Positions 4,563 through 51,443 of a stretch of 64,000 nucleotides of DNA are shown in pieces; the first letter of the stretch is position 1; the number at the start of each line of letters is the position of its first letter. The translations under genes and the position numbers were made by a program. Below the pieces are notes generated by a model. It saw only the letters and a list, made by a program, of their open reading frames with translations, did no database searches and was not told the DNA's origin. Source of the stretch: a virus; the IMG/VR virus record IMGVR_UViG_3300045988_180880, positions 96,001 to 160,000 of that record; one strand, 5' to 3'.

Positions 4563-4600
4563 CATATATTAGGTTTTAATCTTCCTTAAAACGCAAAAAT
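4563..4600 (-). promoter_or_regulatory. promoter (TTTTTGCG ... AAACCTAATATATG class) for the HNH gene
   Basis: The reverse complement reads tttttgcgttttaaggaagattaaaacctaatatatg. It is nearly identical to the element at 51723..51759 and related to those at 31174..31211, 21093..21132 and 50058..50095. Confidence 0.55.
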
Positions 4601-4605
4601 TCACT

Positions 4606-5160
4606 TTAAGGTCTATTAAATGGAGTTGGTCCAGAAACAGTCTGTCGTATATTAATATTGTTTCCTTGTTGTAGCCCACTTCCATGTTTGTATATACTCT
4701 GTTGAGCTTGATTATATTGAATATTATAGTTATTAATCATTAAATCTATATCTGCCTCAGAAAAACATCTTTTCTCTTGAATCATTCTTATATCGTCATA
4801 TACTTTCTTTGGTAAACTTCTAAATCTACCATTCTGAAGTCTTATATTATAATCAATTATATTTGTTTCTCCACGTCGATTTTTCGTAATTGTTGATATT
4901 CCTAGGTTGTTAGGGTTGGGTTTCTCACCACCCTTAGAGCGTGTTATAATAAAATCTACCACATCAACCTTATGGCTAGACCCAGCTATATAAGACATAT
5001 CTAATACTTCTTGACTATATGCTCCAATTTTTAACTGAGACAATATAAATACTAACTTTCCCATTGCAGTTAACTCTGTAAGCTTATCATAAATATCTCC
5101 GAAAGATTTATACATAGATCCATCCTCTCCACCGTGAGCGTTTTTAAATCCCGCATCATA
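4606..5160 (-). CDS. DnaB/gp41-like replicative helicase, exon 3
   Basis: Begins YDAGFKNAHGG... Joined to exon 2 it restores a Walker-B-like segment, YKILFID|YDAGF. The ATG of track ORF 4606..5163 is the last 3 nt of the intron. Confidence 0.8.
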   Translation of the reverse strand, partial: YDAGFKNAHGGEDGSMYKSFGDIYDKLTELTAMGKLVFILSQLKIGAYSQEVLDMSYIAGSSHKVDVVDFIITRSKGGEKPNPNNLGISTITKNRRGETNIIDYNIRLQNGRFRSLPKKVYDDIRMIQEKRCFSEADIDLMINNYNIQYNQAQQSIYKHGSGLQQGNNINIRQTVSGPTPFNRP

Positions 5161-6413: not shown

Positions 6414-7511
6414 TTAAAGATTTTCTTCATTAATAACTATATCTTGAATATCACAATACTTATAGTAGTTATGTAATAGTTCATCTCTTTGTTCGAATCC
6501 TTTTGTATATACCGGGATTCTTTTCGGTATTTTAGGTTTTAGTGCAAGAACGTTCATATTAGTTCCTCTTGCTGTTCGTCCTAGTTGTTGAAGAACCGAT
6601 CCAGCGTTGATATTAGAAACTAGTAATATATTTTCTAATCCAGGAAGGTCTAGTGCTCTAAATCCTGCGGCGGTACTAGGAATTATATCTACCATTCCAT
6701 TTTTAATATATTCGCATGATTGTTGAAGATCTAGGTTTGTTTTATTTCCAGACAAGTCATAATAAATATATCCTTCGCCGCAAATTAAGAGCACTCTAAA
6801 TACTCCAATAAAAAAGTTATCTATCCAAGTTGAAATAATATTATTTAAATTATTTATTGGGATATATAATTTAGGATATTTTTTTGCTATCTTTACAATC
6901 AATTCACATACTCCAGGATCAACCCAAATTTTTGACATTATTGTATTATAGACATTATTATCCTCATTAAAATCCTCTTCTGTAAATTTAATATTATTTA
7001 AAGCGATAGTATTTATGTGGATACTATTTATTTTCAGACTAGTAGGCATTCTATAAACTAATGCTGGTCCGAAATATTTAATTAAGTCCTTGTTTCTTAC
7101 TACTGTTTCCGTAATTCCCTGTGCAAATGTGATCATAACTCCTGAATCTCGATCTGCAGTTCCAGAAAATCCGTACATAACTTCAGCATTCACTAGTCTA
7201 TCATATATCCATTCACCAGAAGGATTAATAGTATATTCTACTTCATCTACTAGAACCCAATCGAATTTCTTAAGTTTCTCTTCCTCTAAAATACATAGGT
7301 CTGGATCTTTTATTTTCTTTTGATTTAGAAATCCTGAAGTAATTATACATCCAAGATCTCCATCTATTGATGTAGGTAATTTACCACCAAATCTAGACTC
7401 GTATCTTTTTACAATTTCATCTTTCGCTTTTTTTCCTGGAGTTATAACTAATACTTTTTTTCCAAGTTCATTATGTGCATAGTTTATAAGAGTTGCTATA
7501 GTTTCAGTTTT
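6414..7511 (-). CDS. SF2 (DEAD/DExH-like) DNA helicase, exon 2
   Basis: Begins K-TETIATL..., completing Walker A. Other motifs: VLVITPGKK, LVDEVEY (motif II), FSGTADR (III), QQLGRTARG (VI). Confidence 0.8.
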   Translation of the reverse strand, partial: KTETIATLINYAHNELGKKVLVITPGKKAKDEIVKRYESRFGGKLPTSIDGDLGCIITSGFLNQKKIKDPDLCILEEEKLKKFDWVLVDEVEYTINPSGEWIYDRLVNAEVMYGFSGTADRDSGVMITFAQGITETVVRNKDLIKYFGPALVYRMPTSLKINSIHINTIALNNIKFTEEDFNEDNNVYNTIMSKIWVDPGVCELIVKIAKKYPKLYIPINNLNNIISTWIDNFFIGVFRVLLICGEGYIYYDLSGNKTNLDLQQSCEYIKNGMVDIIPSTAAGFRALDLPGLENILLVSNINAGSVLQQLGRTARGTNMNVLALKPKIPKRIPVYTKGFEQRDELLHNYYKYCDIQDIVINEENL

Positions 7512-8539
7512 CATTTTGTTATCTCATAAGTTTTTTATCTTATAATTCTTATTTTATTTAAATAAGATCGGCATATATATTCTTCTAATTAATAGAAGTA
7601 GGACACTCATGGGAAGATTATCTCACCTCCTATGCTCTACACTACAAAATTTATATTTGTAGATCGGTATTAGATTTAACCCATCCTTCACCGAATTTGT
7701 CCTATAATAAAATTAAGTATTTTTACTTAACTCGGCAAATTTTTTATATTTTCTCTCTAAATAAACAGTTGCATTTTTATATAATAAATTTCCTACACCA
7801 ACGGCTTTACTACATTCACTAACTATTTGATAATTATTAATTCCTTTCTTAGATGATCTCGTTGATAATAATTTTCCAAACTTATTTTTAAAAATATCCT
7901 GAATTTTAGATAGAAATTCTTTTGTTCCTAAAATATCTATCCTTAATTTATTTCTACTAGTATTCGTAATACTTCCGTCTCCATCTATATATCCCCTAAT
8001 AAATGAATATACTAAATCATTATTAGAAAATATTTTTAATGATGGGAATACTAATATTAACGACTTATTAGGTACACAACCTAATTCAATTAATCTATCG
8101 TGAAAATGTTTGTCGGTTATTATACATCTACATCTAAAATACTCTTTATTATTTATAGAAGCCGCTTTACTTACCGTTATAGATCTTTTATTTTTAAGGA
8201 ATTTATTAAATTTCTCTAAATGTTCTTTATCACTAGCTTTTAATGATAACTCTACTGAATTATTATATTTACTATTAACAAATCCATCTGCATATAAAAA
8301 TCCTAACCAATAGGCTTTTTCATCAGAATCTATATTATCAAATACTGTATTATCAAAATATAATTCTTCTTTTGGAATTGTTAATTTATATTTTTTTAAA
8401 TAATTATATAAAGTACTTTTAGAAACATTTAATTCTTTAAGAAGATCTTTACATCTATAACCTTTTTCAATCAAAGAAGTAAGATCTTCTATTTTTAACT
8501 GTTTTGATTTTGTCATGTTATTTAGATTTAAAATTATTT
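7512..8539 (-). mobile_element. intron (probable group I, 1028 nt) carrying a LAGLIDADG homing endonuclease gene, inserted in the Walker A codons of the SF2 helicase
   Basis: Exon 1 ends ...TNTGYG(GGU) and exon 2 starts AAA ACU (KT), restoring GYGKT. A stop follows 2 codons into the intron. The 3' 200 nt contain many stable hairpins (for example CUACAAA/UUUGUAG, CUUCUA/UAGAAG, UAGGACA/UGUCCUA). The core differs from the mini-intron family. Confidence 0.65.
7713..8516 (-). CDS. LAGLIDADG homing endonuclease (double-motif) with N-terminal HTH
   Basis: Two LAGLIDADG motifs: AYWLGFLYADGFV and SFIRGYIDGDGSI. N-terminal HTH: LKELNVSKSTLYNYLKKY. Confidence 0.9.
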   Translation of the reverse strand: MTKSKQLKIEDLTSLIEKGYRCKDLLKELNVSKSTLYNYLKKYKLTIPKEELYFDNTVFDNIDSDEKAYWLGFLYADGFVNSKYNNSVELSLKASDKEHLEKFNKFLKNKRSITVSKAASINNKEYFRCRCIITDKHFHDRLIELGCVPNKSLILVFPSLKIFSNNDLVYSFIRGYIDGDGSITNTSRNKLRIDILGTKEFLSKIQDIFKNKFGKLLSTRSSKKGINNYQIVSECSKAVGVGNLLYKNATVYLERKYKKFAELSKNT

Positions 8540-8948: not shown

Positions 8949-9875
8949 TTATTTAATCCATTGTAAATTATTTCCAGCCCTAAGTTTTCGTTTCATACAT
9001 TCTTCTGGATCTTCTCCATTAGATTTTATGATATTAATAGGGCAATAATCTATTCTTTTTCTTATTTTTTTAGCTACACCCATAGATTTTTCAGTATCAT
9101 CTAAGTAACATAAGATTTTTTCTGGAACGTACTCACTAAGAAAATCTAATTGATAATCTGATATAGAACTTCCCAAAACTGCAAAAGGTATATAATCAGG
9201 TGCCATAATTAAAGCAGCTATAGCATCATATACCCCTTCCACTACTATTATTTTTCTTAGACCTTGACCATGATCTATTACATAAGGAGGCTTTGCTGAT
9301 ATTTGTGGGAAAAGATATCTAATTTTTGTCTTTCCAGAAAATCTAATCTGGTAATAAAATACTTCCCCATGATATTTAAATGGCATTACTACATTTCCAT
9401 CAACAAATTTAAAGTCTAGGAGTTTATAGATGTCGTTCATAAAAGGATGTCTACTCATTAGATAATCATAGCCTCTTTGATCAAAATTATCAAATTCATT
9501 CCAGTATTTATCTAATGTCCATATAGGATCTTCTGTAAGTTTAACTACATTTGGATGACCTGAATATCCATAATACAATGACATAAAATCAGGTACTTTA
9601 AATGATGTATCAACTTCATCAGACACATGTATATAGGCTCGATTACATACAAAACAAGTACCAACAGTTAAGTCAGTTTTTATATATAATTTATGTTTTG
9701 TATGTCCAGAATCTCTACAAAATGGACAATGAATAATATAGTGTCCTGTTGAATTTGCATGAGGTTCTACTTCTTCCATACTAGATACTCCATAAAAATC
9801 TTTAAGAAGTTCTTCGAAGTTACAAAACACTAATACACGTCCATCTTTTAATTTTACTTCTTTATAGTCTACCAT
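8949..9875 (-). CDS. DNA primase (zinc finger + TOPRIM)
   Basis: CxxC...CxxC zinc finger (HCPFCRDSGHTKHKLYIKTDLTVGTCFVCN). TOPRIM motifs IIVVEGVYDAIAA and YLDDTEKS. Confidence 0.8.
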   Translation of the reverse strand: MVDYKEVKLKDGRVLVFCNFEELLKDFYGVSSMEEVEPHANSTGHYIIHCPFCRDSGHTKHKLYIKTDLTVGTCFVCNRAYIHVSDEVDTSFKVPDFMSLYYGYSGHPNVVKLTEDPIWTLDKYWNEFDNFDQRGYDYLMSRHPFMNDIYKLLDFKFVDGNVVMPFKYHGEVFYYQIRFSGKTKIRYLFPQISAKPPYVIDHGQGLRKIIVVEGVYDAIAALIMAPDYIPFAVLGSSISDYQLDFLSEYVPEKILCYLDDTEKSMGVAKKIRKRIDYCPINIIKSNGEDPEECMKRKLRAGNNLQWIK

Positions 9876-20877: not shown

Positions 20878-21160
20878 GGACTAAGGAACCCTTTATCATA
20901 CCTTCCGTTCACCACTAAAGGGTTCACTCCAGGGCCCTACGGGCTCTAGATTGAATAAACTATATAGGGAATAAATAGATTATAAGAATTCGATCTCCTC
21001 CCAAAGGGAGATCGAATATATTAAGTGGAACTTTTTTAATCGAAAATAGATTTACTTTATATATGGTCAAATATGTCCTATTTAAATGACAATTTTGCGC
21101 TTCTACTAACTTTAAATCCTTACAATTGAATGAAGATTATAAAGGGTATCCCTAGTCTTC
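20878..21160 (+). other. non-coding, hairpin-rich element bounded by inverted repeats (copy L), upstream of the helicase-like gene
   Basis: 5' ggactaaggaaccc (20878..20891) against 3' gggtatccctagtc (21144..21157). Internal hairpins lie at 20887..20924, 20931..20947 and 20989..21016. Homologous to 50034..50512 on the opposite strand. Confidence 0.6.
21093..21132 (+). promoter_or_regulatory. promoter (TTTTGCG ... TTACAATTGAATG) of helicase-like gene L
   Basis: ttttgcgcttctactaactttaaatccttacaattgaatg aligns with the R-copy sequence ttttgctcttctattaacctcaaattctaattaatg and with the TTTTTGCG promoter class. Confidence 0.45.
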
Positions 21161-21232
21161 GATTTTATGTAACTGGATTCTGTATTAAAAAGAATCTATA
21201 AATAATAAATTAATTAAAAACTTTATAAAATT

Positions 21233-23260
21233 ATGACTAAAGATAAAATTATTGTACCTAGAGGAATTAGGTATATAGGAGAGTGGAAAGATTTCTGCTT
21301 TTCTAATTTTCTAAGTAAATGTATTATTAATAAACAATTACCTGGATGTGGTTTTACTGAATACTGTATTAATGGTCCTGAGAATGTAATACTTTGTTCT
21401 CCTAGAAAAATGCTTTTAAAGAATAAATATGATCAACATAAAAATGATATTTATTTAGTAATTAATGAGATGGATAAAGATCCAGATGTGGATAAGGATA
21501 TTAGTAAGGATATTAAAAATCCTAATTTAGATGAAGATTATCAAGAAAAGAAAGATAATTCTGAGATCTATGAAAGATTATATAGAGAAATTGATACTTA
21601 TACCTATCAAAGATATCTAAATAATCAACCAGCTAAGATTCTAGTAACATATGATTCATATAGAATCGTTAAAGATATTCTTGAAAAAATTAGAATATTT
21701 GATAGGTTTATGACTATAGTAGATGAGTTTCAGAGTATTTTACACGATTCTAGATTTAAAAGCAATACTGAAATGGGATTTTTGGAATATCTTAAACAAT
21801 CCCCAACAGCATACTTTGTATCAGCTACTCCTATGATGGATGAATATCTAGAAATGTTAGATGAATTTAAGGATCTCCCATATTATGAATTAGATTGGTA
21901 TAGTTCAGATTCTAGTAGAGTAATCAAACCTTCATTAAAAGTACTTACAATGAAATCAGTAGGTACAAAAGCAGAAGAAGTAATTCAATCCTATCTATCA
22001 GGAGATTTTGAAGAAGTTGTTGTTCTTAGAGATAGTGTACCTACTAGAGTAATATCAGACGAAGCAGTATTTTATGTAAACAGTGTTAATCATATTATAT
22101 CTATCATCAAGAAAAATGAATTAACTCCAGAACAATGTAATATATTATGTAGCAATACTCCAGAAAATCTAAAGAGAATACAAAAGAAATTAGGAAAAGG
22201 TTTTACTATAGGAGAAGTACCTCTTAAAGGAGTTAAACCTAGGATGTTTACCTTTTGTACTAGAACGGTTTACTTAGGAGCAGATTTTTATAGTTTATGT
22301 GCACGTAGTTTTATATTCTCAGATTCTAATTCAGACTGTTTAGCAGTTGATATTGCAGAAGATCTTCCACAGATACTAGGTAGACAAAGGTTGTTTAGTA
22401 ATCCTTGGAACAATTCAGCAACTTTTTATTATCGTACTACAGCAGATTATAGAGAAATGAAAGAGTCTGATTTTCAGAAAATTTTAAATAAGAAAACAGA
22501 AACTACAGAAAACTTATTATCAGTATATAATAAAGGAACTGATGAAGAAAGATATGATTTAGCGAAAAATTATTTATATGTAGCTAAGTCAGCAAGTTAT
22601 AAAGATAATTATGTAGCAGTAAATAAAATAATTACCAGTACAGGTAATATTATTTTAAAACCTGTTATTAATCAGCTTGTAAAAGTTAATGAGATTCGAG
22701 CATTTAAAATTCAGCAAATTGATTATAAAGATAGATTTAGTGTATTTAGTAGTGTACACTCTAAACTTACTCCTGATGATATAGTAAATAGGGATGTAAC
22801 TAGATTTTTCTGTATTTATGATACTTATACTACAATTCATGATAAACTTAAAATGTTATGTGAATATCCTGTTTCTAGAGAAGTGATAGATATAGTTCTT
22901 GGACAAATAGCAGATTCTGATGAAGTTAAGTCTTATTATCTGTCATTAGGTCCTACTAAACTTAAAGCGTTATCATACAATTCTCATAAAATAAAGAAAG
23001 AGCTTGGAATAGTAACATTTAGTCCAGAATTACTTAATAATACAATTCATCAAAACTTTAATCCAGGAGAGAAATATACACTATCTAATCTTAAAGCAAA
23101 ACTAGGAGATTTATATTCTAGTATTTCTTATACTGCAGTGCCAAAAGCTAATGATATTTTAAATTACTTTGAGGTAAAAGAATATAAATCTACTGAGGTT
23201 GTAGATGGGGAAAAGAAAAGAGTAAGAGGATATGAACTATTAAAAAGAAAGGATAATTAA
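21233..23260 (+). CDS. SF2 helicase-like protein with atypical motif I and a C-terminal domain shared with the next gene (paralog L)
   Basis: Motifs: QLPGCGFTEY (motif I position, no Lys), IVDEFQS (II), VSATPM (III), FCTRTVYLGADF (V), QILGRQRL (VI). About 70% aa identity by eye to 47922..49964. Confidence 0.7.
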   Translation: MTKDKIIVPRGIRYIGEWKDFCFSNFLSKCIINKQLPGCGFTEYCINGPENVILCSPRKMLLKNKYDQHKNDIYLVINEMDKDPDVDKDISKDIKNPNLDEDYQEKKDNSEIYERLYREIDTYTYQRYLNNQPAKILVTYDSYRIVKDILEKIRIFDRFMTIVDEFQSILHDSRFKSNTEMGFLEYLKQSPTAYFVSATPMMDEYLEMLDEFKDLPYYELDWYSSDSSRVIKPSLKVLTMKSVGTKAEEVIQSYLSGDFEEVVVLRDSVPTRVISDEAVFYVNSVNHIISIIKKNELTPEQCNILCSNTPENLKRIQKKLGKGFTIGEVPLKGVKPRMFTFCTRTVYLGADFYSLCARSFIFSDSNSDCLAVDIAEDLPQILGRQRLFSNPWNNSATFYYRTTADYREMKESDFQKILNKKTETTENLLSVYNKGTDEERYDLAKNYLYVAKSASYKDNYVAVNKIITSTGNIILKPVINQLVKVNEIRAFKIQQIDYKDRFSVFSSVHSKLTPDDIVNRDVTRFFCIYDTYTTIHDKLKMLCEYPVSREVIDIVLGQIADSDEVKSYYLSLGPTKLKALSYNSHKIKKELGIVTFSPELLNNTIHQNFNPGEKYTLSNLKAKLGDLYSSISYTAVPKANDILNYFEVKEYKSTEVVDGEKKRVRGYELLKRKDN

Positions 23261-23262
23261 TT

Positions 23263-24294
23263 ATGATATATTTGATTAAGAGTGCAGGTTATGATGAGAA
23301 TGAAAATTTAATTCATCTTCTCAAAATAGGTTATACAGAGGATAATAATAGAGATAGAAGATTTATGTCTTACAAACTTCATAATCCTACTTGTAAAATT
23401 TTATATGAAATTCCCAGTCTTTCAGAAGATATAGAAAAGAGAATTCAATATAAGTTTAGAGATTATAAGTATAAAGAATATGGAAATGAGTGGTTTTATT
23501 ATAATGATGATGTAATAAATTTCTTTAGGGATATAGATAAAGTAGATTTGGAATCTCTTCCAAAGTCTCCTATGAGTGAAAAGAGGGATTATAAGAGATT
23601 TAGAAAAATGGTTAAAGAATTTGTTCCTTGGATTATTGCTGATATAAAGGATAGAAATGAATATGTAAAGAAGATAATAGATGAATTAGGTAGTAATTTA
23701 AATTCTATTCAGGATATATTAGATTATGTGATAAAGGATTACGGAGAGGATTCTATCTCTAAGTATCTTGAAGTTACTAAGAAAAAAGAGATGAAAGTGT
23801 ATAGTGAAGATTCAAAGATTAATAGTGAAATAATAAAGTTTATTAATACTTATGAAACTCTTACTACTATCTATGATAAACTTAAAATGTTATGTGAATA
23901 TCCAGTCTCTAAGGAAGTTATTCAGATAGTATTAGATCAAATAGCAGATAGTGATGAGATTAAGTCTTATTATTTGCTTTTAGGTCCTGATAGGTTGAAA
24001 AAATTACATTATAATATTACAAATATTAGAAGAGAATTAGGTATTGTAACCTTTAGTCCTGAATTATTAAATAATACTATTCATCAAAATTTTAATCCAG
24101 GTGAGAAGTATACATTAGCTAATTTAAAGGCTAAACTTGGAGATCTATACTCTTCTATTTCTTATACTGCAGTTCCTAAGGCCAATGATATTTTAGAGTA
24201 TTTCGAAGTAAAAGAGGTTCAAAATACTATGTTAGTAGATGGAGTAAAGAAGCGAATTCGTAGTTATGAATTATTAAAAAGAAAGGATAATTAA
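23263..24294 (+). CDS. T5orf172 (GIY-YIG-related) domain protein carrying the same C-terminal domain as the helicase-like protein
   Basis: N-terminus IYLIKSAG...LLKIGYTEDNNRDRRF...NEWFYYN matches the T5orf172 pattern. The last roughly 150 aa (TTIYDKLKMLCEYPVSKEVIQIVLDQIADSDE...YELLKRKDN) nearly repeat the C-terminus of 21233..23260. Confidence 0.7.
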   Translation: MIYLIKSAGYDENENLIHLLKIGYTEDNNRDRRFMSYKLHNPTCKILYEIPSLSEDIEKRIQYKFRDYKYKEYGNEWFYYNDDVINFFRDIDKVDLESLPKSPMSEKRDYKRFRKMVKEFVPWIIADIKDRNEYVKKIIDELGSNLNSIQDILDYVIKDYGEDSISKYLEVTKKKEMKVYSEDSKINSEIIKFINTYETLTTIYDKLKMLCEYPVSKEVIQIVLDQIADSDEIKSYYLLLGPDRLKKLHYNITNIRRELGIVTFSPELLNNTIHQNFNPGEKYTLANLKAKLGDLYSSISYTAVPKANDILEYFEVKEVQNTMLVDGVKKRIRSYELLKRKDN

Positions 24295-24296
24295 TT

Positions 24297-24767
24297 ATGA
24301 AGTTAGGTAAATTAATTTCTAAAGCAATATCTTGTATAGATTCTTATATTAATCCACCAACAGAAAAAGAATTAAAAGATAAGCATAAGACTGAGTTTTA
24401 TGTCTATATATCCCAATTTCCTGGATTTATGGCAATGAATATATTAGATGAAATTGAGGAACTCGAAATGGATATTTTATCAGAGGATTATTATAATATA
24501 AGAGCTGGAAAAACGTGGAAGGTTCTTATATTATATCAAGGAACTTCAGATTGTTTGGGAAATATAAATAAAGTTCTAAAAGAAGATTTGGAATATTTTA
24601 GGAAACGAGTGATAAAATTAAATGAAACGTACTTAAATGGGGAAGTTTCAAGTATGGAAAATTATGATAGAAAAATACTTAGATGGTGTTTTCAATCAGA
24701 AGATCCAGAATTTAGTAGTAAATTTTTTAAATATTTAAATAAGTTGTTAAATGGTAATAAAACGTAA
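24297..24767 (+). CDS. hypothetical protein
   Basis: 156-aa ORF. A truncated, stop-containing homolog lies at 47722..47919 (-). Confidence 0.55.
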   Translation: MKLGKLISKAISCIDSYINPPTEKELKDKHKTEFYVYISQFPGFMAMNILDEIEELEMDILSEDYYNIRAGKTWKVLILYQGTSDCLGNINKVLKEDLEYFRKRVIKLNETYLNGEVSSMENYDRKILRWCFQSEDPEFSSKFFKYLNKLLNGNKT

Positions 24768-25254
24768 ATTATTCTCTAAAGAAGTAGAGAGAAAGAAATC
24801 TGATAAAGGATGGGATGCTGCTTTAGGAGCTGGTATTGGTGCTACAGCTGGAGTTGCTGGTAAAATGAAGCTTGAGAAGATTAATTCAATTAAGAAATTA
24901 AAAAATGCTACTAATGCTAGAATAAATAAAGTTCATGACTATCGAACTGAGAAAGTAGAAACAGAGATGCAAAGGAGAATTAATGCTTCTGTTGATCCTT
25001 TTGAAAAATCTGTAATAGATGAGGTTAGAAGAGGTAAACATGATATAATTAATAATAGCCGTAAAAATATGATAGAAACAGTTGGAAAGAAGAAACGAAA
25101 GCTAAAAATTGCGACAGCTGCTATCCCAATTGCTGGAGCTATTATTGGTGCAGTTTATGGTCGTGATAATAATCTCAAGAAACAAAGAGATAAAATAGAA
25201 GATGCTGCAGGAGATAGAGTTGCAGATATTGTTAGAGGAAAGAAAGAAAAATAA
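24751..25254 (+). CDS. glycine-zipper membrane protein
   Basis: AALGAGIGATAGVAG and IATAAIPIAGAIIGAVYG segments. The C-terminal 50 aa are homologous to 46747..47013 (-). Confidence 0.55.
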   Translation: MVIKRKLFSKEVERKKSDKGWDAALGAGIGATAGVAGKMKLEKINSIKKLKNATNARINKVHDYRTEKVETEMQRRINASVDPFEKSVIDEVRRGKHDIINNSRKNMIETVGKKKRKLKIATAAIPIAGAIIGAVYGRDNNLKKQRDKIEDAAGDRVADIVRGKKEK

Positions 25255-26667: not shown

Positions 26668-27080
26668 ATGGAAACAGGAGAAATTACAAGACAAGCAAAA
26701 CAAAGCTTAACTATCTTTAAAAAAAACAACTTCATGAATGTCAGTGTAGAGAGAATCGATTAAAAGAATATTATGAAAAGAAGTGGCTGACAAAGAAAGA
26801 GTTTTTAAAGAAAATAAGAAAGCAGAGAAAGAAAAGAGCAGAATTTGCAGAAAAGTATCTCACTAAATATAATGAATTTAAGAATCTTGGAGAAAAGATG
26901 TCACTAGAGCAAGAAAATTATGCTAGGGATGCAGATATAATAGTAAGTAGTTGGTTTATAATAACTCACCAATCATTACCTAAATTATTTATCTTAGCTG
27001 GAATGGTATCTGTTATAATGAAGAAAATAACTAAAGATTTTTGGTTATTGAGTGAGAAGAAAAAAGAGAGGGAAATTTAA
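26668..27080 (+). CDS. hypothetical membrane protein readable only with a -1 shift at an A8 run (26719..26726)
   Basis: The ATG at 26668 opens 31 codons in one frame. The -1 frame is open from 26721 to 27080 but has no ATG before 26898. The frames overlap on UUU AAA AAA AAC. Confidence 0.35.
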
Positions 27081-27088
27081 TCCCTCTC
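27066..27088. terminator. bidirectional terminator hairpin between convergent genes
   Basis: gagaggga-aatttaa-tccctctc, with an A-run upstream and a T-run downstream. Confidence 0.65.
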
Positions 27089-38258: not shown

Positions 38259-38693
38259 ATGAAAAAATTAACAAAAGAAGAAGCAGCAGAATTAAATGAA
38301 TTATTCGAAACTAGTAATTTTAAACCAGAAATGAGTGGTCTTAGTTTATATACAACACTAACTCAGATAAATTCAAAGACAATTAAACCAGGAGAAAATA
38401 ACCTTAGATTAATATCTATTCAAGGAACTGAGAAAATTTCGAAAATGATTGGTAGATTTATTACGAAGAAAAATAAAAAGCTAATTAAGATTACAGCTTA
38501 TTCAAAAAGTGGAAAAGTTCTTAAGGAGTTTGATTTTAATTGTTCTACCTTATATATAGAGAAAGGAAGACAGTCAAAAGATATAGATGAAATTACTGGA
38601 GAGATTGGATTTATACCTTTAGTAGGAGATGTATTTGTTCCAAGGTCTCATTATATTGGATTTAAAGTACTATATGATAAAGAGGGGATTTAA
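38259..38693 (+). CDS. hypothetical protein
   Basis: 144-aa ORF bracketed by a promoter motif and a terminator. Confidence 0.55.
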   Translation: MKKLTKEEAAELNELFETSNFKPEMSGLSLYTTLTQINSKTIKPGENNLRLISIQGTEKISKMIGRFITKKNKKLIKITAYSKSGKVLKEFDFNCSTLYIEKGRQSKDIDEITGEIGFIPLVGDVFVPRSHYIGFKVLYDKEGI

Positions 38694-38703
38694 TTTCCCT
38701 CTC
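38681..38703 (+). terminator. intrinsic terminator hairpin
   Basis: agagggga-tttaatt-tccctct followed by cttttttc. Confidence 0.65.
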
Positions 38704-38716
38704 TTTTTTCTTTCTC

Positions 38717-41436: not shown

Positions 41437-41532
41437 AATTTTTAAGTAAAAGGGAATAAATTTTCCCTTTTATTTTTCTCCTTAAGATAACCGACAAATC
41501 CTTATTAATGTAACAATAAAACATTGATAATT

Positions 41533-42513
41533 ATGAAAACAAACATTTATGAAAGAAAATTAAATTATGGAGAACAAGAAGCCATATTTAATAAGATGGT
41601 TGAAAAGACCGAAAAATATGTGATAGATAATAATATAAGAGCATTAATTCTTGGTATCTCAGGAGGAGCAGATAGTACTCTTATGGCTGCTGTATGTAAT
41701 GAAGTTAGAAATAGATCTGGAATTCCTTTTTACGGATATTCACTTCCAATAAAGAATAAACCAGATGAACTTACTTCGTCTGATCTAACAGGAAATGCTT
41801 TTTGTGTTAAAACTTTTTATAGAGAAGTTGCACAGTATGATTTCTATAAAAGTTATATAGAAAATCTCTATAACTACGATTATTGTGATAATGATCGAGA
41901 TATTCTTTGTGATTTATCTGGAAAAAGTATATCCGAGATAGAGGGGATGATGCCAGAACAAACAAAAATAGCCAACGGAAATATTATGGCACGTCTTAGA
42001 ATGATGTACCTATATAATCAAGCTGGTATTAAGAAAGGTATTGTAATTGATACTGATAACTTAACTGAACATTATCTTGGATTTTGGACTATTCACGGAG
42101 ATGAAGGAGATTTTAATCCTATGGGTGGTCTCTGGAAAACAGAAGTATACTCTATTCTTAAGTGGTTACATGCGAAGTATTATTCAGAATCTTATTTAGA
42201 TACTGAAATCATAAATAAAAATTCGTACAATAAGATGGTAGCTCTAGAGAAAGCTATTAATATTACACCCACTGATGGTAATGGAATTTCTAGTTCTGAT
42301 CTTGAACAAATTGGAGGAAAGGATTATACTGAAGTAGATAAAATTTTGATTCCTTTGATTTGTAAAGGTTCGGGAGCTATTTCAGAATTATCTAAAATTC
42401 ATGGGATGGATACTGTAATGAAGATTTGGAATAGAGTTCAAGGATCAGAATTTAAAAGAAGAACTTCCAGAGTAATAAAAGTGTCACGAGAAGAATTATT
42501 TGAAGGATTATGA
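41533..42513 (+). CDS. nadE: NH3-dependent NAD+ synthetase (PP-loop ATPase)
   Basis: PP-loop ALILGISGGADSTL. NadE core ANGNIMARLRMMYLYNQA...VIDTDNLTEHYLGFWTIHGDEGDFNPMGGLWKTEVYSILKWL. The first ATG is at 41533. Confidence 0.88.
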   Translation: MKTNIYERKLNYGEQEAIFNKMVEKTEKYVIDNNIRALILGISGGADSTLMAAVCNEVRNRSGIPFYGYSLPIKNKPDELTSSDLTGNAFCVKTFYREVAQYDFYKSYIENLYNYDYCDNDRDILCDLSGKSISEIEGMMPEQTKIANGNIMARLRMMYLYNQAGIKKGIVIDTDNLTEHYLGFWTIHGDEGDFNPMGGLWKTEVYSILKWLHAKYYSESYLDTEIINKNSYNKMVALEKAINITPTDGNGISSSDLEQIGGKDYTEVDKILIPLICKGSGAISELSKIHGMDTVMKIWNRVQGSEFKRRTSRVIKVSREELFEGL

Positions 42514-46333: not shown

Positions 46334-46738
46334 TTATAAGAGTTTCTCGCCTTCTACAGTTATGGTCCTATGTTTCTTTTGTAGTTCGTCAAGTAATTTT
46401 CTTTTTAGTGTTCCAGGGAGAGGAATTTGTGGAAACAGCAACGTCTCACTTCTATGTTTCCAAAGCCACTCATCTATCTCTTCGAAGGATTGCTCAAAGA
46501 CTTCAAAAACTGGTTGCTCATCATAAAACCATTCATCTAAGAATTCAACTTTAAAATCATATAGTCTAAGGTGAAGTCTAAGTTCGTCTAATTCTGAACC
46601 CTCTCGTGTAGATATTATTTCTCCAAGAGGATTATGAAGACGATATTGATTTTTTCGTTTTTCTAAGTCTCCGGTATATCCAATTTTTACAACCTTCCTT
46701 ATTCCTTTCCATGCGCCAGATCCAAATAAATATAACAT
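46334..46738 (-). CDS. T5orf172 (GIY-YIG-related) domain protein (module R)
   Basis: MLYLFGSGAW...VVKIGYTGDLEKRKNQY...LDEWFYDE matches the T5orf172 pattern. It lacks the long C-terminal domain of 23263..24294. Confidence 0.65.
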   Translation of the reverse strand: MLYLFGSGAWKGIRKVVKIGYTGDLEKRKNQYRLHNPLGEIISTREGSELDELRLHLRLYDFKVEFLDEWFYDEQPVFEVFEQSFEEIDEWLWKHRSETLLFPQIPLPGTLKRKLLDELQKKHRTITVEGEKLL

Positions 46739-46746
46739 TTTATAAT

Positions 46747-47013
46747 TTACTCCTTTTTCTTCTTACCTTTAATAATTCCAGCAACCCTATCTCCTGCCAC
46801 ATCCTCTATCTTATTCCGCTGCTTCTTAAGGTTATTTTGATATCCATAGGTTGCACCAAGAATAGCTCCTGCAATCGGAATGGCAGCTGCTGCAATTTCA
46901 TCATGGGATAAATATGTAAAATCATCAAGTGACCTATGTGTACCATAGGTAGTCAATGTTTCAGCACTTGCCATTCTTGCTTTCTTTGCAGCTTCTTCTA
47001 CTGTCTGTTTCAT
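46747..47013 (-). CDS. glycine-zipper membrane protein (paralog of the 24751..25254 C-terminus)
   Basis: IAAAAIPIAGAILGATYGYQNNLKKQRNKIEDVAGDRVAGIIKGKKKKE compares with IATAAIPIAGAIIGAVYGRDNNLKKQRDKIEDAAGDRVADIVRGKKEK. Confidence 0.6.
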   Translation of the reverse strand: MKQTVEEAAKKARMASAETLTTYGTHRSLDDFTYLSHDEIAAAAIPIAGAILGATYGYQNNLKKQRNKIEDVAGDRVAGIIKGKKKKE

Positions 47014-47348
47014 AACTTATTCGGATTTGTTTTACAATAATTTTCATTCTCTTTCAGTTTTAAAATATTATTCAAATGTTCGTCTGAAAGCAGATGCTTA
47101 TTACTAAAATTACCCAACATTATACGAGGTTCAATATTTTCATCTCTCATAAATTTCTGTAGTTCGTATATATGAAAAAGCAAACCTTCACAATCTACTG
47201 CGTAGTATTCAACGCCATCGTCATTGTTGGCAGATACTTCATAACCAATCCATCCACCGTTACCCATATAAGTATTTATCTCAATATTACGGCAAAAGCC
47301 ATAACTGATAAGTAATAGCCTTAGTACATCTTTCCCACTCATACACAT
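47010..47348 (-). CDS. hypothetical protein
   Basis: 112-aa ORF with overlapping start/stop codons on both neighbours. Confidence 0.5.
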   Translation of the reverse strand: MCMSGKDVLRLLLISYGFCRNIEINTYMGNGGWIGYEVSANNDDGVEYYAVDCEGLLFHIYELQKFMRDENIEPRIMLGNFSNKHLLSDEHLNNILKLKENENYCKTNPNKL

Positions 47349-47509
47349 TTCGATTTATCAATTTGTCCTATACGCTGTCTTTCAAATCCCTCTATCTGTG
47401 CGTCAGTAAGGTTGTTCAGCCATTCATCAGCATACTTTCTGTACTTGGCATGATTGCATTTATAAAACTCCAATCTAAGCCATTCAATAGTTATGTCCTT
47501 TTGTTCCAT
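47339..47509 (-). CDS. hypothetical small protein (56 aa; below the ORF-track cutoff)
   Basis: ATG at 47509: MEQKDITIEWLRLEFYKCNHAKYRKYADEWLNNLTDAQIEGFERQRIGQIDKSKCV. The start abuts the upstream stop (TGAttATG). The stop overlaps the next start (ATGTGTATGA). Confidence 0.5.
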   Translation of the reverse strand: MEQKDITIEWLRLEFYKCNHAKYRKYADEWLNNLTDAQIEGFERQRIGQIDKSKCV

Positions 47510-47511
47510 AA

Positions 47512-47703
47512 TCATCTGGTTATAGTAGTTCTTTTATTAAATAAAACCATAAGTATCAAGGCAAAGGCGACTTTCAATAATCGCTTTTTACCAACAATTA
47601 CAATGTTGTCTTTGGTTATTCCACTATCAGTTGTTATGCTGTACCATTTACTATATGGTGGTAAGCACCTATAAATATGAATTTTAGAAAATGTATATTT
47701 CAT
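47512..47703 (-). CDS. hypothetical small membrane protein
   Basis: 63 aa. Preceded by a canonical Shine-Dalgarno (ataggaggtaattATG). C-terminal hydrophobic segment LLKVAFALILMVLF. Confidence 0.5.
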   Translation of the reverse strand: MKYTFSKIHIYRCLPPYSKWYSITTDSGITKDNIVIVGKKRLLKVAFALILMVLFNKRTTITR

Positions 47704-47721
47704 AATTACCTCCTATGTGTT

Positions 47722-47919
47722 TTATGGTTCTTGTTCATTCAACATAATTTTATCTCCTTCTCTTTTAAGGCTTATATCAATTGCCATAAATTCAGGAAAT
47801 TGAGATATATAAACATAAAACTCAGTCTTACGTTTATCCTTTAATTGTTTTTCTGTTGGTGGATTCTTATATTAATCCACACAAGATATTGCTTTAGAAA
47901 TTAATTTACCTAATTCCAT
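47722..47919 (-). pseudogene. truncated, stop-interrupted homolog of 24297..24767
   Basis: MELGKLISKAISCVD-TAA-YKNPPTEKQLKDKRKTEFYVYISQFPEFMA... compares with MKLGKLISKAISCIDSYINPPTEKELKDKHKTEFYVYISQFPGFMA... There is an in-frame TAA at codon 16 and the sequence ends after 65 codons. It is preceded by aaggaggtg. Confidence 0.6.
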
Positions 47920-47921
47920 AA

Positions 47922-49964
47922 TTAACACACCTCCTTTCTACTTAATAGTTCATAACCCTTTGTTTGTTTCTTTTTTCCAGTAGTCTCATCTAAAATAGAT
48001 ATATAAATTAATTTAACCTCAAAATAACTTTCTAAATCTTTTGCTTTAGGGGTTTTATCATAATTAATACTAGAATACAAATATCCTAACTTATCTTTTA
48101 TTCCAGATAATATTAATTTATCCCCTACTTTAAATTCATTATAGATAGTAGCTTCTAATAATTCATCTGAAAAAGTAATTATTCCTAAAGCTTTTTTTAT
48201 TTTAGTAATATGATAACCCATACCCTTTAATCTTTGAGGACCCAATGTAATATAGTAAGATTTAACCTCATCTGAATCAGATATCTGCCCTAATACTATA
48301 TCAATAGCGTCTTCAGACAAACCATATTCACAAATAAGTTTTAATTTATCATACATAGTAGTTAAACTAGTATATACCTTTAAAAAATTTGATACCTCCT
48401 GATTCACTATATCATCTCTGGTTAACATATTATGTACCGTACTAAACACTGTAAATCTATCTTTATAGTCTATCTGTTGTATTTTAAAAGCTCTAATCTC
48501 ATTTACTAGTACTAGATTATTAGGAACTGGTTTAAGAATAATATTTCCTTCAGAAGTATGAATCTTATTTACTGCTACATAATCATCCTTATAATTAGAA
48601 GCTTTGGCATCTTTCTGATACTTCTTAGCTAATGCAAATTTATCTTTTATAGAAATAGCAATATTATAAGTTCTTAATAAACTTTCTGTCATTTCTTGTT
48701 TAGTTTTTATTATTTTCTGAAAATCTTCAGCCTTCATTTCTCTATAATTAGCAGTAGATCTATAATAAAAAGTGGCTGAATTTTTCCAAGGATTATCAAA
48801 TAATCTTTGCCTTCCTAATATCTGGGGCAAATCTTCTGATATATCTACAGCCAAGGAATCTATATTACTATCACTGAATATAAATGATCTAGCACATAAA
48901 CTATAAAAGTCAGCTCCAAGATATACAGTTCTTGTACAAAAAGTAAACATTTTAGGTTTTACTCCCTTTAACGGTACTTCACCTATCTTAAAAGACTTAC
49001 CTAACCTCCTTTGAATTTTCTTTAAATTATCTTCTGTGTATGAACATAAGATATTACATTGCTCTGAGGTAAGATTATTCTTTTTAATGATAGATGTAAT
49101 ATGATTAACACTATTAACATAGAATACAGCCTCATCTGATACTACTCTAGTAGGAATTCCATTTCTAAGAACTACTATACTTTCAAACTCTCCTGAAAGA
49201 TACTTTTGAATTACTTCAGAAGCTTTTTCACCAACAGATCTCATTACAAAGACATCTAAATCTGGTTGAATAACTCTACTAGGATCCGCAGATCCCCAAT
49301 CTAATTCATAATATGGGAGATCCTTAAATTCATCTAACATTTCTAAATATTCATCCATCATAGGAGTTGCACTAACAAAGTATGCTGTTGGAGATTGTTT
49401 AAGATATTCTAGAAATTTTAATTCAGTATCACTCTTAAATCTAGAATCATGAAGAATACTTTGAAATTCATCTACTATTGTATAAAATGTATAAAATCTA
49501 TCTAATTTCTCTAGGATATCTTTTACTATTCTATATGAATCATAAGTAACAAGGATTTTACAAGGTAATCCATTAATACTCCTAGATATACAGTATTCCT
49601 CTATTTCTCTATATAATCTTTTATAGATATCTGAATTATCTAATGATTCTGAATCAATTGATAAGTCTGCTAAAATATTTTTATCAATCTTAGATAAGTC
49701 TTTATCAATATTAGACTCCTTATCCATTTCATTTACGACCAGATAAACATCAAATTCATGTTGATCCTTTTTATTCTTAAGTAGCATCTTTCTGGGACTA
49801 CATAAAATAATATTTTCATTACTCCTAATACAATATTCAGTAAAACCACATCCAGGTAATTGTTTATTAATAATACATTTACTTGGAAATTTATTAAAAT
49901 TAAATTCATTCCATTCTGAAATAAATCTAATTCCAGATGGTACTATTATCTTCTCTCTAATCAT
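47922..49964 (-). CDS. SF2 helicase-like protein with atypical motif I (paralog R)
   Basis: Same motifs as 21233..23260 (QLPGCGFTEY, IVDEFQS, VSATPM, QILGRQRL). The C-terminal domain is more diverged. Confidence 0.7.
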   Translation of the reverse strand: MIREKIIVPSGIRFISEWNEFNFNKFPSKCIINKQLPGCGFTEYCIRSNENIILCSPRKMLLKNKKDQHEFDVYLVVNEMDKESNIDKDLSKIDKNILADLSIDSESLDNSDIYKRLYREIEEYCISRSINGLPCKILVTYDSYRIVKDILEKLDRFYTFYTIVDEFQSILHDSRFKSDTELKFLEYLKQSPTAYFVSATPMMDEYLEMLDEFKDLPYYELDWGSADPSRVIQPDLDVFVMRSVGEKASEVIQKYLSGEFESIVVLRNGIPTRVVSDEAVFYVNSVNHITSIIKKNNLTSEQCNILCSYTEDNLKKIQRRLGKSFKIGEVPLKGVKPKMFTFCTRTVYLGADFYSLCARSFIFSDSNIDSLAVDISEDLPQILGRQRLFDNPWKNSATFYYRSTANYREMKAEDFQKIIKTKQEMTESLLRTYNIAISIKDKFALAKKYQKDAKASNYKDDYVAVNKIHTSEGNIILKPVPNNLVLVNEIRAFKIQQIDYKDRFTVFSTVHNMLTRDDIVNQEVSNFLKVYTSLTTMYDKLKLICEYGLSEDAIDIVLGQISDSDEVKSYYITLGPQRLKGMGYHITKIKKALGIITFSDELLEATIYNEFKVGDKLILSGIKDKLGYLYSSINYDKTPKAKDLESYFEVKLIYISILDETTGKKKQTKGYELLSRKEVC

Positions 49965-50033
49965 ATTTAAATTATATTTTTATTGTTACAAAATAATATT
50001 TAAACTCAATACAGAGTTCAGTTAGTTAAAATT

Positions 50034-50512
50034 GAAGACTAAGGATACCCTTAACTTCATTAATTAGAATTTGAGGTTAATAGAAGAGCAAAATACAACT
50101 TTACTAATACATTTTCACCTACATGTAGTATATAAATTTAATTCGGATAGAAAAGTTGTAGTGGTTCTTCTATAAGAGCGAACATAGTGAGAGACTCACC
50201 TCCCGAAGGGAGGAGGTGATGTCGTCTCTTATAGGAGGTTCACGATAAATAGAAAATAATAGATTAATTATTATATATCTATTATATGGAAATGAACCTT
50301 AAAAGAGTACCGTCCACCCGCTCCCTGTAAGGGGAGCGAGGACTCTCACTAACGTTCGTACTTTTTAAGAACCATTAAATAATTATATTTTCTATTCAAT
50401 TCTAACTAATATTTATTTAATTCTTTTTTATTCTCTATATATCTTTTCAGTTTCTTGAAGGCCCGAATGAACATAGTGAATGAAGGATATAGATTCTGGT
50501 ATCCCTAGTCTT
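50034..50512 (-). other. non-coding, hairpin-rich element bounded by inverted repeats (copy R), upstream of the helicase-like gene
   Basis: gaagactaaggataccc (50034..50050) against ggtatccctagtctt (50498..50512). A long-range helix joins 50162..50193 with 50343..50374 and encloses hairpins at 50196..50219 and 50319..50338. Confidence 0.6.
50058..50095 (-). promoter_or_regulatory. promoter of helicase-like gene R
   Basis: The reverse complement reads attttgctcttctattaacctcaaattctaattaatg, homologous to 21093..21132. Confidence 0.45.
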
Positions 50513-50539
50513 TGAAAAAATATTACAAAAAATATAAAA

Positions 50540-50580
50540 GATAGGTTTTGACTAATTTTAAAGTCAAATTAAATCCTATC
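50540..50580. terminator. long terminator hairpin (paralog of 43761..43800)
   Basis: gataggttttgac-taattttaaa-gtcaaattaaatcctatc followed by ttttatatttttt. Confidence 0.6.
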
Positions 50581-50594
50581 TTTTATATTTTTTA

Positions 50595-51443
50595 TTATAT
50601 GAAATTTAATCTTTTCTGATAAATATTAAATACAAGATTTGATACATTATCTAAATATAATTTCTCTAATGACATTTGTTTAAGTTTATTATATGGAGTA
50701 CCAGATATTTTATTAGAGAATTTATATAATTGTTTTAAATTTATAGTTAATGATCTTTTTAGAAAGAATTCATTAAGTCCAATAAAATTTATAATAATAT
50801 CTATAAATTCTAATACTTTTTTATTATCTCTTATAAAATTTCCAATAATTGTTTTTGAATAGTTTATTGGAATTTCTACCATAGGTAAATTATTAGTTCT
50901 AAAATAGTTTATTATATTATTAGTTATTTTATTAAACAAGTTTATATAAGGAATTGTGTGTTCATCATTACTTCCAAATTCATAATATCTATGAATAATT
51001 ATTCCATAAACACGCTCTACATAGATATCTCTTGCTTTATCATAGATTATTTTTGCTTTATGATATTTAGAATCTATTTCTACGGCTATTCCTAAATAAG
51101 GAAAGAAATAATCTAGTAAAAAGTATCTTGTATTTCTGATACTATCATCCAATCTAACAGAGAAAGAATTTAAAATATTATTCCATAAACTTGTATTCTC
51201 AATTATTATTGGAAATTCCTCAATATAATTATAATATCCTTTAATATTGTAATTATTATCAATAAGATTTTTAAAATTAATAGAATAACTACTCTTATCG
51301 TTTAAAATTGCTTTTTCACGATTAAATACTACATCTATTAATTTATTATTGATTTTTACTTTTCTTGGAACAAAATACATTCCTATATAAGCTGTATAAA
51401 ATTTATCTCTTATTACGTAATTTCTAATCAAATTTAAATCCAT
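50595..51443 (-). CDS. free-standing endonuclease-like protein with DUF559/Vsr-like PD-(D/E)xK domain
   Basis: LLDYFFPYLGIAVEIDSKYHKAKIIYDKARDIYVERVYGIIIHRY fits the DUF559 pattern (DF...vE.D..yH....D..Rd..l...G..v.R.). Confidence 0.6.
   Translation of the reverse strand: MDLNLIRNYVIRDKFYTAYIGMYFVPRKVKINNKLIDVVFNREKAILNDKSSYSINFKNLIDNNYNIKGYYNYIEEFPIIIENTSLWNNILNSFSVRLDDSIRNTRYFLLDYFFPYLGIAVEIDSKYHKAKIIYDKARDIYVERVYGIIIHRYYEFGSNDEHTIPYINLFNKITNNIINYFRTNNLPMVEIPINYSKTIIGNFIRDNKKVLEFIDIIINFIGLNEFFLKRSLTINLKQLYKFSNKISGTPYNKLKQMSLEKLYLDNVSNLVFNIYQKRLNFI

Follow-up and report, generated by a model that had tools for sequence, protein, structure and literature searches.

A nested inverted-repeat element with a predicted four-way-junction domain precedes a family of helicase-like genes in large human-gut phages

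The locus described here comprises about 478 nt of strongly self-complementary sequence in front of a phage gene. The window, i.e. the whole stretch of 64,000 nucleotides analysed (IMG/VR virus record IMGVR_UViG_3300045988_180880, positions 96,001 to 160,000), is phage-like DNA with a G+C content of about 30%. It contains a diverged inverted duplication (21215-25250 versus 46754-49982, 70-89% identity), and each copy of the duplication begins with a helicase-like gene. The stretch in question, copy R of the element, follows a terminator-like hairpin belonging to the upstream gene (50520-50600) and precedes the start codon of one of these genes (49964). The initial annotation had set it beside a shorter homologous copy L, and this copy was indeed found in front of the other paralogue. 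The genes and the two copies are as follows.

47922..49964, minus strand: helicase-like gene R (680 aa), downstream of copy R, with SF2-type motifs recognized by eye
21233..23260, plus strand: helicase-like gene L (675 aa), whose protein is 70% identical to that of gene R
50034..50512, minus strand: copy R of the element, about 478 nt, read in the sense of the helicase gene; R-type homologues of 465-513 nt occur in phage contigs
20876..21160, plus strand: copy L of the element, about 285 nt, at the same position before the other helicase paralogue

The motifs seen by eye in helicase-like protein R are PGCGFTE, VDEFQ, SAT, and GRQR. Neither the single sequence nor a profile gave a significant match in Pfam, PHROGs, NCBIfam, or the PDB sequences. 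One source names a relative of the protein "ATP-dependent RNA helicase", and tblastn returned distant matches only (23-32% identity), annotated as "DEAD-like helicase" or hypothetical. Two short faecal scaffolds resembling small replicons also appeared in the tblastn search and were set aside as unverified linear fragments. The AlphaFold model (mean pLDDT 46) was too poor for a fold search. The family comprises more than 4,300 matches, all of them labelled gut "Bacteriophage sp.", on contigs that reach about 405 kb. No homologue was found in GTDB genomes, and thus the protein gives no clue to the host. A scan for tRNAs and tmRNA found none.

All features of copy R that had been listed in the initial annotation were recovered at their coordinates upon rechecking. 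Together with the parts recognized in this work, they are given below; all lie on the minus strand.

50520..50600, minus strand: terminator-like inverted repeat of the upstream gene, then TTGTAAT-N9 (50513-50528) directly before the P1 5' arm
50498..50512, minus strand: P1 5' arm (outer repeat), AAGACTAGGGATACC in gene sense, sequence conserved in 26 of 26 variants
50469..50479, minus strand: second exact copy of the box core, TCACTATGTTC in gene sense, not conserved across variants
50161..50375, minus strand: inner GC-rich domain, 215 nt, predicted four-way junction
50367-50374/50162-50169, minus strand: closing stem of the predicted junction, 8 bp, inner domain
50301-50366, minus strand: left arm of the predicted junction, inner domain
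50343..50358, minus strand: left box CGAACGTTAGTGAGAG, in the left-arm internal loop, one strand of the long helix of the initial annotation
50237-50298, minus strand: central AT-rich hairpin of the predicted junction, inner domain
50170-50234, minus strand: right arm of the predicted junction, inner domain
50179..50194, minus strand: right box TCTCTCACTATGTTCG, in the right-arm internal loop, nearly invariant in 31 variants
50095..50159, minus strand: helix Pc, ACAACTTT/AAAGTTGT, enclosing a roughly 43-nt AT-rich loop with a TATATA motif
50058..50093, minus strand: module C, a conserved block TTTTGCTCTTCTATTAACCTCAAATT plus the promoter-like core CTAATTAATG (50058-50067)
50034..50050, minus strand: P1 3' arm (outer repeat), GGGTATCCTTAGTCTTC, among the most conserved parts of the element
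50003..50019, minus strand: hairpin with conserved loop CUGUAUU, between element and start codon

As evident from this layout, the element consists of nested inverted repeats around what looks like the helicase gene's own promoter box. The outer repeat of copy R (50035-50049/50498-50512) comprises 15 nt with 14 Watson-Crick pairs and one G-T, the latter being a G-U in the gene-sense (minus) strand, in agreement with the boundary repeats described before. The outer repeat recurs in copy L, where it extends to about 30 bp, and module C is likewise present there, with its core at 21119-21128. The 215-nt domain is replaced in copy L by a single hairpin (20989-21016).

Inside copy R, the hairpins tcacctcc/ggaggtga (50196-50219) and cgctccc/gggagcg (50319-50338) are exact. 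They had been described as enclosed by one long helix between 50162-50193 and 50343-50374. These segments do pair, but not continuously: 8 bp (TGGTTCTT/AAGAACCA) and 15 bp with one bulge (CGAACGTTAGTGAGAG/CTCTCACTATGTTCG) are separated by an unpaired block of 8x9 nt. The further claim of a "third copy" of gaacatagtga turned out to be loosely worded. The window contains just two exact copies of GAACATAGTGA, at 50180-50190 and 50469-50479, and the partner is an imperfect reverse complement.

Folding strength was compared with dinucleotide-shuffled controls. The minus-strand RNA of 50030-50516 folded at -147.4 kcal/mol versus -93.7 ± 6.5 for the shuffles, a clearly better fold (z -8.3), and the plus strand of the same stretch gave z -7.9. 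The two strands of copy L reached z -6.3 and -4.0. In a scan of the whole window, 50101-50400 was the most extreme of 425 overlapping 300-nt stretches (z -11.1), and copy L ranked 7th (z -4.6). Neither of the two outcomes that the initial annotation had named as refuting was observed: the fold surpasses the shuffled controls, and the domain is not missing from relatives with the long form of the element (below). The earlier judgement that the region is unlikely to be a neutral spacer is supported.

Relatives were collected with a 16-mer from the P1 3' arm (32 homologous loci on IMG/VR contigs of 17-378 kb), by a protein-anchored search (53 further loci), and by a box-based scan that yielded 33 human-gut metagenome loci, of which 29 had an element that could be used. 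After removal of near-duplicates, 26 distinct full variants (from 62 loci) and 31 inner-domain variants were available. The element precedes every helicase-like paralogue found in human-gut phage contigs of 200-400 kb. Large contigs carry three such paralogues with an element before each, and in several contigs the three gene-plus-element units of a genome are 113-136 kb apart.

The variants fall into an L-type of about 283 nt and an R-type of 465-513 nt. Common to all are P1, a 5' region with a small GC hairpin and the motif TGAATAAGATATATAGGGA, a variable middle, Pc, module C, the P1 3' arm, and the CUGUAUU hairpin. Module C is highly conserved (consensus TTTTGCTCTTCTA.TAAC.T.AAA..CT.A....TG). 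The variable middle is a single GC hairpin in the L-type and an AT-rich stretch plus the 215-nt domain in the R-type. This multi-helix GC-rich domain, put at roughly 210 nt in the initial annotation, proved to be a conserved unit that is kept across relatives with compensatory changes, and it was present in every R-type element found, including all close relatives of the gene R helicase. Its parts are mosaic: three unrelated types of left arm, two or three of right arm, and at least 14 of Pc are freely combined. The left box is confined to left arms of "type a", and types b and c, i.e. 14 of the 31 variants, have unrelated sequence instead. Between copies L and R, the conserved blocks of the element are less divergent than the adjacent coding sequence.

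Copies L and R gave no blastn match among 50,697 phage records. Searching the whole window against Rfam 15 at gathering thresholds was equally without result, and with E-values up to 10 the best scores for the two copies were 17-23 bits versus thresholds of 37-76. The literature searched held no description of the element. Its family matches no catalogued RNA family, and its architecture, nested repeats around a promoter-like box with exchangeable modules and a predicted four-way-junction insert, is not catalogued. The kind of object is a known one: a structured control region, a processing stalk, or a palindromic viral site.

Alignment of the variants indicated that stems are preserved by compensatory changes and that loops vary. 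For the inner domain, the conserved fold is a predicted four-way junction: its closing stem measures 8 bp, and its three arms are the left arm, the central AT-rich hairpin, and the right arm. On the alignment of the 31 distinct variants (A6), 92.4% of the cells of this junction were paired, and ten pairs (90 cells) had changed on both sides. The covariation score was 0.191 compared with at most 0.105 when the partners were slid, and none of 500 shuffles reached it. Thus, the helices are kept by compensatory substitutions, as is generally expected of structured RNA. The long box-to-box helix of the initial annotation did not emerge as the conserved pairing: 80.8% of its cells were paired, two-sided changes were absent, and it was broken in 14 of 31 variants, because the box is missing from left arms of types b and c. 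Competing with this helix are the local stems AAAAAGTAC/GTACTCTTTT and CTATAAGAG/CTCTTATAG, which do covary (AAAAAGUAC/GUACUCUUUU versus AAAAAGUAUC/GAUAUCUUUUU and CUAUAAGAG/CUCUUAUAG versus CUAAAUAAG/CUUAUUUAG). The right box shows only C/U and G/A changes among the 31 variants.

A switch-like alternative pairing via the copy at 50469-50479 had also been proposed. This copy is absent or different in most variants, and two mutually exclusive conserved pairings of the riboswitch or attenuator kind were not found. The UUCG loop assigned to the hairpin at 50196-50219 is present in copy R but not conserved, being flipped to CGAA in several relatives. The initial annotation was therefore right in outline about the nested helices, the conserved fold differs from the one it drew, and the switch is unsupported.

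Outside the inner domain, Pc provides a case of changing sequence with constant pairing. Its arms occur in 14 different sequences, and each of them complements its own partner; Watson-Crick runs averaged 8.1 with the own partner versus 5.3 with the partners of other variants, and the loop length stays at 40-44 nt in most variants. Arms that are hypervariable yet complementary cannot be protein sites. P1 is about 30 bp long with a bulge in the L-type and 15-17 bp with weak extensions in the R-type; substrates of RNase III present about two turns of double-stranded RNA. Its pair positions 3 and 9 toggle among A-U, G-U, and A-C in the 26 variants. In its inner part, the sequence differs between subfamilies and the pairing is retained, with matched insertions. 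Sense-strand G-U pairs occur as a run of three in variant L071 and number two or more in L086 and L089. The 5' arm is usually one base short compared with the 3' arm (GGA-ACC versus GGTATCC). Such a bulge is tolerated by a helix and not by a duplicated protein site, which favours a helix. Taken as they appear in the alignment, the hypervariable but complementary Pc arms and the re-paired inner P1 argue for base pairing in a single-stranded state. The stem of the CUGUAUU hairpin varies as well and stays paired (GGATTC/GAATC, AACTC/GAGTT, ACTGGATT/AATCCAGT), with wobbles in the sense strand only. Two further pairings were considered and are not claimed: one of the right box with the helicase start region, inconsistent across paralogues when inspected by eye, and a helix of the motif UAGGGA with UCCUUA/CUCUA of module C, for which covariation was suggestive but which is short and shifts register between variants.

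We then asked the variants for a strand-specific signature, i.e. retention of G-U, avoidance of A-C, and greater stability of the sense strand. None was seen, and all counts were balanced. Of 26 variants, 14 had a sense strand more stable than the antisense strand (mean difference -2 kcal), and G-U versus A-C cells numbered 54/41, 63/59 for P1, and 51/59 for the arms. The hairpin stems are almost perfectly Watson-Crick. Moreover, parts of the element occur in flipped form. The hairpin of variant L072 is the exact reverse complement of that of L069, loop included, and the rest of the element is near-identical; TTCG and CGAA loops alternate among variants. Variant L093 carries the entire 215-nt domain in inverted orientation between GTGGTTCT and AGAACCAC; when reverse-complemented, the domain aligns with its closest relatives. 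A flipped inner domain was found in none of the 29 metagenome loci, and a search of viral contigs for the flipped junction gave 0 matches. From the absence of flips among the metagenome loci, we deduced that flips of the L093 type are rare fixed events rather than switching. The flipped hairpins and loops show that the loop sequence is not critical. Flips combined with near-perfect Watson-Crick stems fit the expected product of template switching at quasi-palindromes. The element is thus a cautionary case of strong folding and covariation without a strand signal and with flipped hairpins, and annotators should hesitate before calling regions with these properties RNA.

The best conserved block of the element, module C, matches a motif that is promoter-like by its position at phage gene starts. 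This motif, CC.T.AAA..-CTTATATATG, recurs in the window and in related loci 20-60 nt before many open reading frames and also at divergent gene pairs. For the core of copy R, CTAATTAATG, the full motif score was 8.1 versus a 99.97th percentile of 4.5 for the window. The upstream flank, scored alone, fell at the 99.9th percentile. The flank model had been trained on the 12 nt upstream of 53 exact-core sites, none from elements, and with it module C of 25 variants lay at a median 99.7th percentile. The same core precedes another open reading frame (position 226, minus strand). The helicase promoter is therefore probably located inside the element, at 50058-50067; this call is motif-based, and other promoter classes may exist besides. 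The P1 3' arm begins 7 nt after the core and so would form the 5' end of the helicase mRNA, and with the box at this place the 210-nt domain and most of the element would be upstream of the predicted transcript start. A second box stands directly before the P1 5' arm; it is near-consensus (CTTATTTATG) in 5 of 26 variants and weak in copy R. A sigma-70 consensus scan gave chance-level hits only. No intrinsic terminator, defined as a GC-rich hairpin with an immediate T-run, was detected in the scan of 49800-50800, including the space between element and gene; the A- and T-runs of the left arm are 5-6 nt away from the stem. A third occurrence of GAAGACTAAGG, at 18820, lies in the terminator hairpin of another gene and overlaps the stop codon of that gene. 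It was dropped, and nine-mer matches in this check were at chance level.

Considering the sequence evidence as a whole, we tentatively regard copy R as a control region of the helicase-like gene that acts at the RNA level, a reading that we rank first but to which we give rather less than an even chance. P1 joins a segment about 450 nt upstream to 17 nt lying after the promoter-like box, over 15-30 bp. Transcripts from upstream would carry both P1 arms; they could start at the variable promoter-like box before the 5' arm or read through the upstream terminator, and would fold into P1 and the junction domain. P1 would then place in a duplex the very bases with which transcripts from the internal promoter begin as a free 5' end. 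A duplex of this kind, 15-30 bp long, might mark the upstream-derived RNA for processing of the RNase III type or mask the leader. Alternatively, a short upstream RNA might act in trans by pairing to the helicase mRNA at its 5' end. In the upstream-derived RNA, the 215-nt domain would serve as a stable, exchangeable structural module.

Control at the RNA level is favoured by the fold far beyond shuffles and by long-range and local helices kept through two-strand changes; pairing across 250-450 nt is natural for RNA and hard for duplex DNA. Further support comes from the five variants with a near-consensus promoter core exactly at the 5' arm, from the placement of the internal box, which makes the 3' arm the predicted mRNA 5' end, from the sense-only wobbles of the CUGUAUU hairpin, and from the lack of a terminator between element and gene. 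The same reading is weakened by the missing strand signal, by stems that are nearly perfectly Watson-Crick, and by the flipped hairpins, loops, and domain. It is also weakened by copy R itself, where the box preceding the 5' arm matches poorly and a terminator-like hairpin is found immediately upstream; transcription through the 215-nt domain is therefore putative. RNase III processing stalks are known from the early-mRNA sites of phage T7 and from the stems flanking 16S and 23S rRNA precursors. By analogy, the element might resemble them in that a long-range duplex of 15-30 bp would enclose structured RNA between an upstream transcription unit and a downstream message of a phage. Unlike the T7 sites, the enclosed segment holds a promoter-like box, and both transcription of the upstream arm and cleavage are putative. 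GOLLD and ROOL, large ornate RNAs specified by phage or prophage DNA, measure hundreds of nucleotides and contain many helices; their function is unknown (PMC12286853). The element is likewise long, many-helixed, and phage-encoded; it differs from them in being tied to one gene family, in its mosaic make-up and tolerance of flips, and in having neither strand bias nor an Rfam match.

Several of these observations can also be read at the level of DNA, with the nested palindromes acting as a folded single strand or as protein sites, which we rank second, as possible but less likely. In one form, the adjacent SF2 helicase-like protein may use the element as a site of replication or loading, with inverted boxes on either side of an AT-rich centre; in another, it would provide operators over the transcript start and upstream of it that loop the promoter. 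In favour are the equal folding of both strands, the balance between G-T and A-C mismatches, an outer repeat and a right box that are conserved as sequence and do not covary, the position of most of the element upstream of the predicted promoter, and the persistence of flipped hairpins and one flipped domain among relatives. The inner domain also has the shape of a near-palindrome, in which two inverted modules of roughly 85 nt surround an AT-rich centre of 35-60 nt. However, arms that are 250-450 bp apart cannot extrude from duplex DNA, and protein sites do not explain Pc arms and an inner P1 that change and stay complementary. An origin-like layout, i.e. an AT-rich region flanked by inverted sites, is compatible with the R-type but absent from the L-type, as copy L has no AT-centred palindrome. 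The presence of three units per genome at the wide spacing noted above would suit a role as DNA, but the two copies in the window are just 27 kb apart, the genes near the element look accessory (DHH phosphoesterase, SLOG, T5orf172, PvuRts1I-like), Toprim-like and Helicase_C genes lie elsewhere in the window, at 6-10 kb, and the GC skew merely follows gene direction. In herpes simplex virus oriS and oriL, palindromic boxes flank an AT-rich centre, formation of a single-strand hairpin matters for function, and the origin-binding protein UL9 is an SF2 helicase. The combination of palindromic boxes around an AT-rich centre with a virus-encoded SF2-type helicase might be analogous, but homology to UL9 was not detected, the gene context is not one of replication, and copy L does not share the AT-centred layout. 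A further reading, which appears unlikely, is that each element is a dedicated loading or replication site for its adjacent helicase-like protein, in the form of folded single-stranded DNA or through an RNA made from it. A gut phage of roughly 400 kb would then possess three matched pairs of helicase and folded site, about a third of a genome apart and exchangeable as units, reminiscent of the multiple origin-plus-initiator pairs of archaeal chromosomes or of UL9 with oriS.

The remaining alternatives assign a smaller role to selection or a larger one to rearrangement. The element could be a largely non-adaptive palindromic mosaic at a recombination-prone module boundary, where template switching creates, corrects, and flips quasi-palindromes and only the promoter block and the leader hairpin are functional. 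Shuffled left arms, right arms, and Pc cassettes, the exact flip of a hairpin with its loop, the TTCG/CGAA flips, the clean domain flip, and near-perfect Watson-Crick stems without strand bias all agree with this. Such a mosaic is nonetheless improbable as the main explanation, given that 31 variants, from two of the three paralogue lineages, retain the architecture, the arm lengths, the constant 40-44-nt loop of Pc, and a nearly invariant right box, and that the conserved blocks have diverged less between L and R than the neighbouring coding sequence. Inversion of the promoter is an idea suggested by the conserved inverted repeats of 15-17 bp that bound a segment of 250-450 bp, with a motif-inferred promoter by the gene-proximal repeat and facing outward. 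Known invertible promoter segments are fimS of E. coli and the invertons of Bacteroides, in which short conserved inverted repeats likewise bound a few hundred base pairs with an outward-facing promoter near the gene, predicted only in the present case. The outer repeats would be recombinase sites, and a 450-bp flip would turn the internal promoter away from the helicase gene. In contrast to those systems, all of about 91 assembled instances (62 loci plus 29 metagenome loci) show the whole element in a single orientation, the search for flipped junctions was fruitless, and the repeats are imperfect, with mismatches and a bulge. A Pfam scan of 39 open reading frames of the window revealed no recombinase, the only relevant match being an HTH_7 domain fused to a LAGLIDADG domain. 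A switch of this type is consequently very unlikely. About as unlikely is a relic of nested miniature transposable elements, in which the outer repeats would represent one element and the 215-nt domain a second one inserted into it. Terminal inverted repeats, a size of 280-480 bp, and strong self-folding would fit, as would an inner domain bounded by its own repeat, (A)GTGGTTCT/AGAACCAC(T), and found in either orientation. Bacterial miniature inverted-repeat elements and REP/BIME mosaics, e.g. Correia elements, affect neighbouring promoters or mRNAs, and they share with our element terminal inverted repeats, mosaic inverted palindromic units, and strong folding. In contrast to these, the element is not dispersed: all copies reside at one conserved position upstream of one gene family, and neither the rest of the window nor about 1 Mb of DNA from related phages yielded another. 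Target-site duplications are absent, and both flanks are conserved together with the element. A dispersed MITE was also rejected for the inner domain, which occurs only upstream of the helicase gene.

The carriers of the element are uncultured phages with very large genomes that abound in the human gut. A conserved, structured element of 280-480 nt at three helicase-like paralogues offers a handle on the control or use of an unannotated gene family. Should it act as DNA, it may mark loading or origin sites in this class of phage genomes. Should it act as RNA, it would be a large, modular, and uncatalogued phage RNA with a four-way-junction domain.

The element that precedes the helicase-like gene belongs, together with this gene and small ORFs, to a larger duplicated module of 3.7-4.4 kb. 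Its two copies form a diverged inverted duplication, 70-89% identical, at 21215-25250 (+) and 46754-49982 (-) of the window. They lie ~27 kb apart, whereas in related contigs three copies are separated by 73-210 kb. For the helicase-like protein of block R (47922-49964, -), a confident structural model was obtained for the C-terminal ~80 residues only (~600-679, pLDDT 77-90). In the model these residues fold into a pair of helices and, after them, a beta hairpin, possibly a small nucleic-acid-binding domain.

Insertions occur in or beside the helicase-like genes. In block L, a T5orf172-domain ORF (23263-24294, +) is inserted 3' of the helicase gene; block R is without such an ORF. The inserted ORF carries a 300-nt duplicate of the helicase 3' end, 74% identical (repeats at 22787-23086 and 23821-24120), and it looks like an insertion of the homing-endonuclease type. 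A second, smaller T5orf172/MUG113 ORF was found at 46334-46738. Among the homologous loci of related gut-phage contigs, L061-L068, L082, L084, L108 and L109 contain an insertion of ~1 kb within the helicase homologue gene, as evident from match spans of 2.96-3.05 kb instead of the usual ~2.0 kb. Candidates for this insert are an intron, an intein and an endonuclease gene.

The relatives also differ in the orientation of palindromic units. In L093 (2526-2752) the 215-nt domain, the GC-rich interior of copy R, is exactly flipped over its entire length, a 28-nt hairpin is exactly flipped, loop included, in L072 compared with L069, and the 4-nt loop (within window 50204-50211) is flipped between TTCG and CGAA in several relatives. 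Such exact flips are signs of template-switch inversions. Furthermore, L068, L093 and L096 have an additional insert of 13-15 nt right behind the 3' arm of P1, the outer repeat pairing of the element. It includes a third GGATAC(C) copy, which could pair locally with the P1 3' arm and replace the distant 5' arm.

The motif CC.T.AAA..-CTTAT(A/T)(A/T)ATG recurs 20-60 nt upstream of ORF starts in the window. The motif is similar to the -7 box of Bacteroidota (TAnnTTTG) and probably represents the main promoter class of the phage.

Occurrences of the promoter-like motif in the window
15778, 18259, 18860, 26206, 26580, 38224, 38727, 41501, 51750, 62841 (+)
2747, 14632, 14967, 15754, 46340, 51689 (-)

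In the folding scan of the whole window, the second most extreme stretch (41701-42000, z -8.2) falls within an NAD-synthase-like ORF (41524-42513). The third (4351-4650, z -6.6) is intergenic and AT-rich with nested inverted repeats. Two terminator-like sequences, 27057-27084 and 38685-38712, are 96% identical in inverted orientation, 11.6 kb apart.

Other genes of the window include the following.

822-2441, Cpn60-type chaperonin
6414-7514, Helicase_C-like gene
7713-8516 (-), LAGLIDADG + HTH_7 ORF, between the Helicase_C-like and Toprim-like genes
8949-9875, Toprim-like gene

The Helicase_C-like and Toprim-like genes may constitute the real replication module, and the LAGLIDADG + HTH_7 ORF is likely a homing endonuclease.
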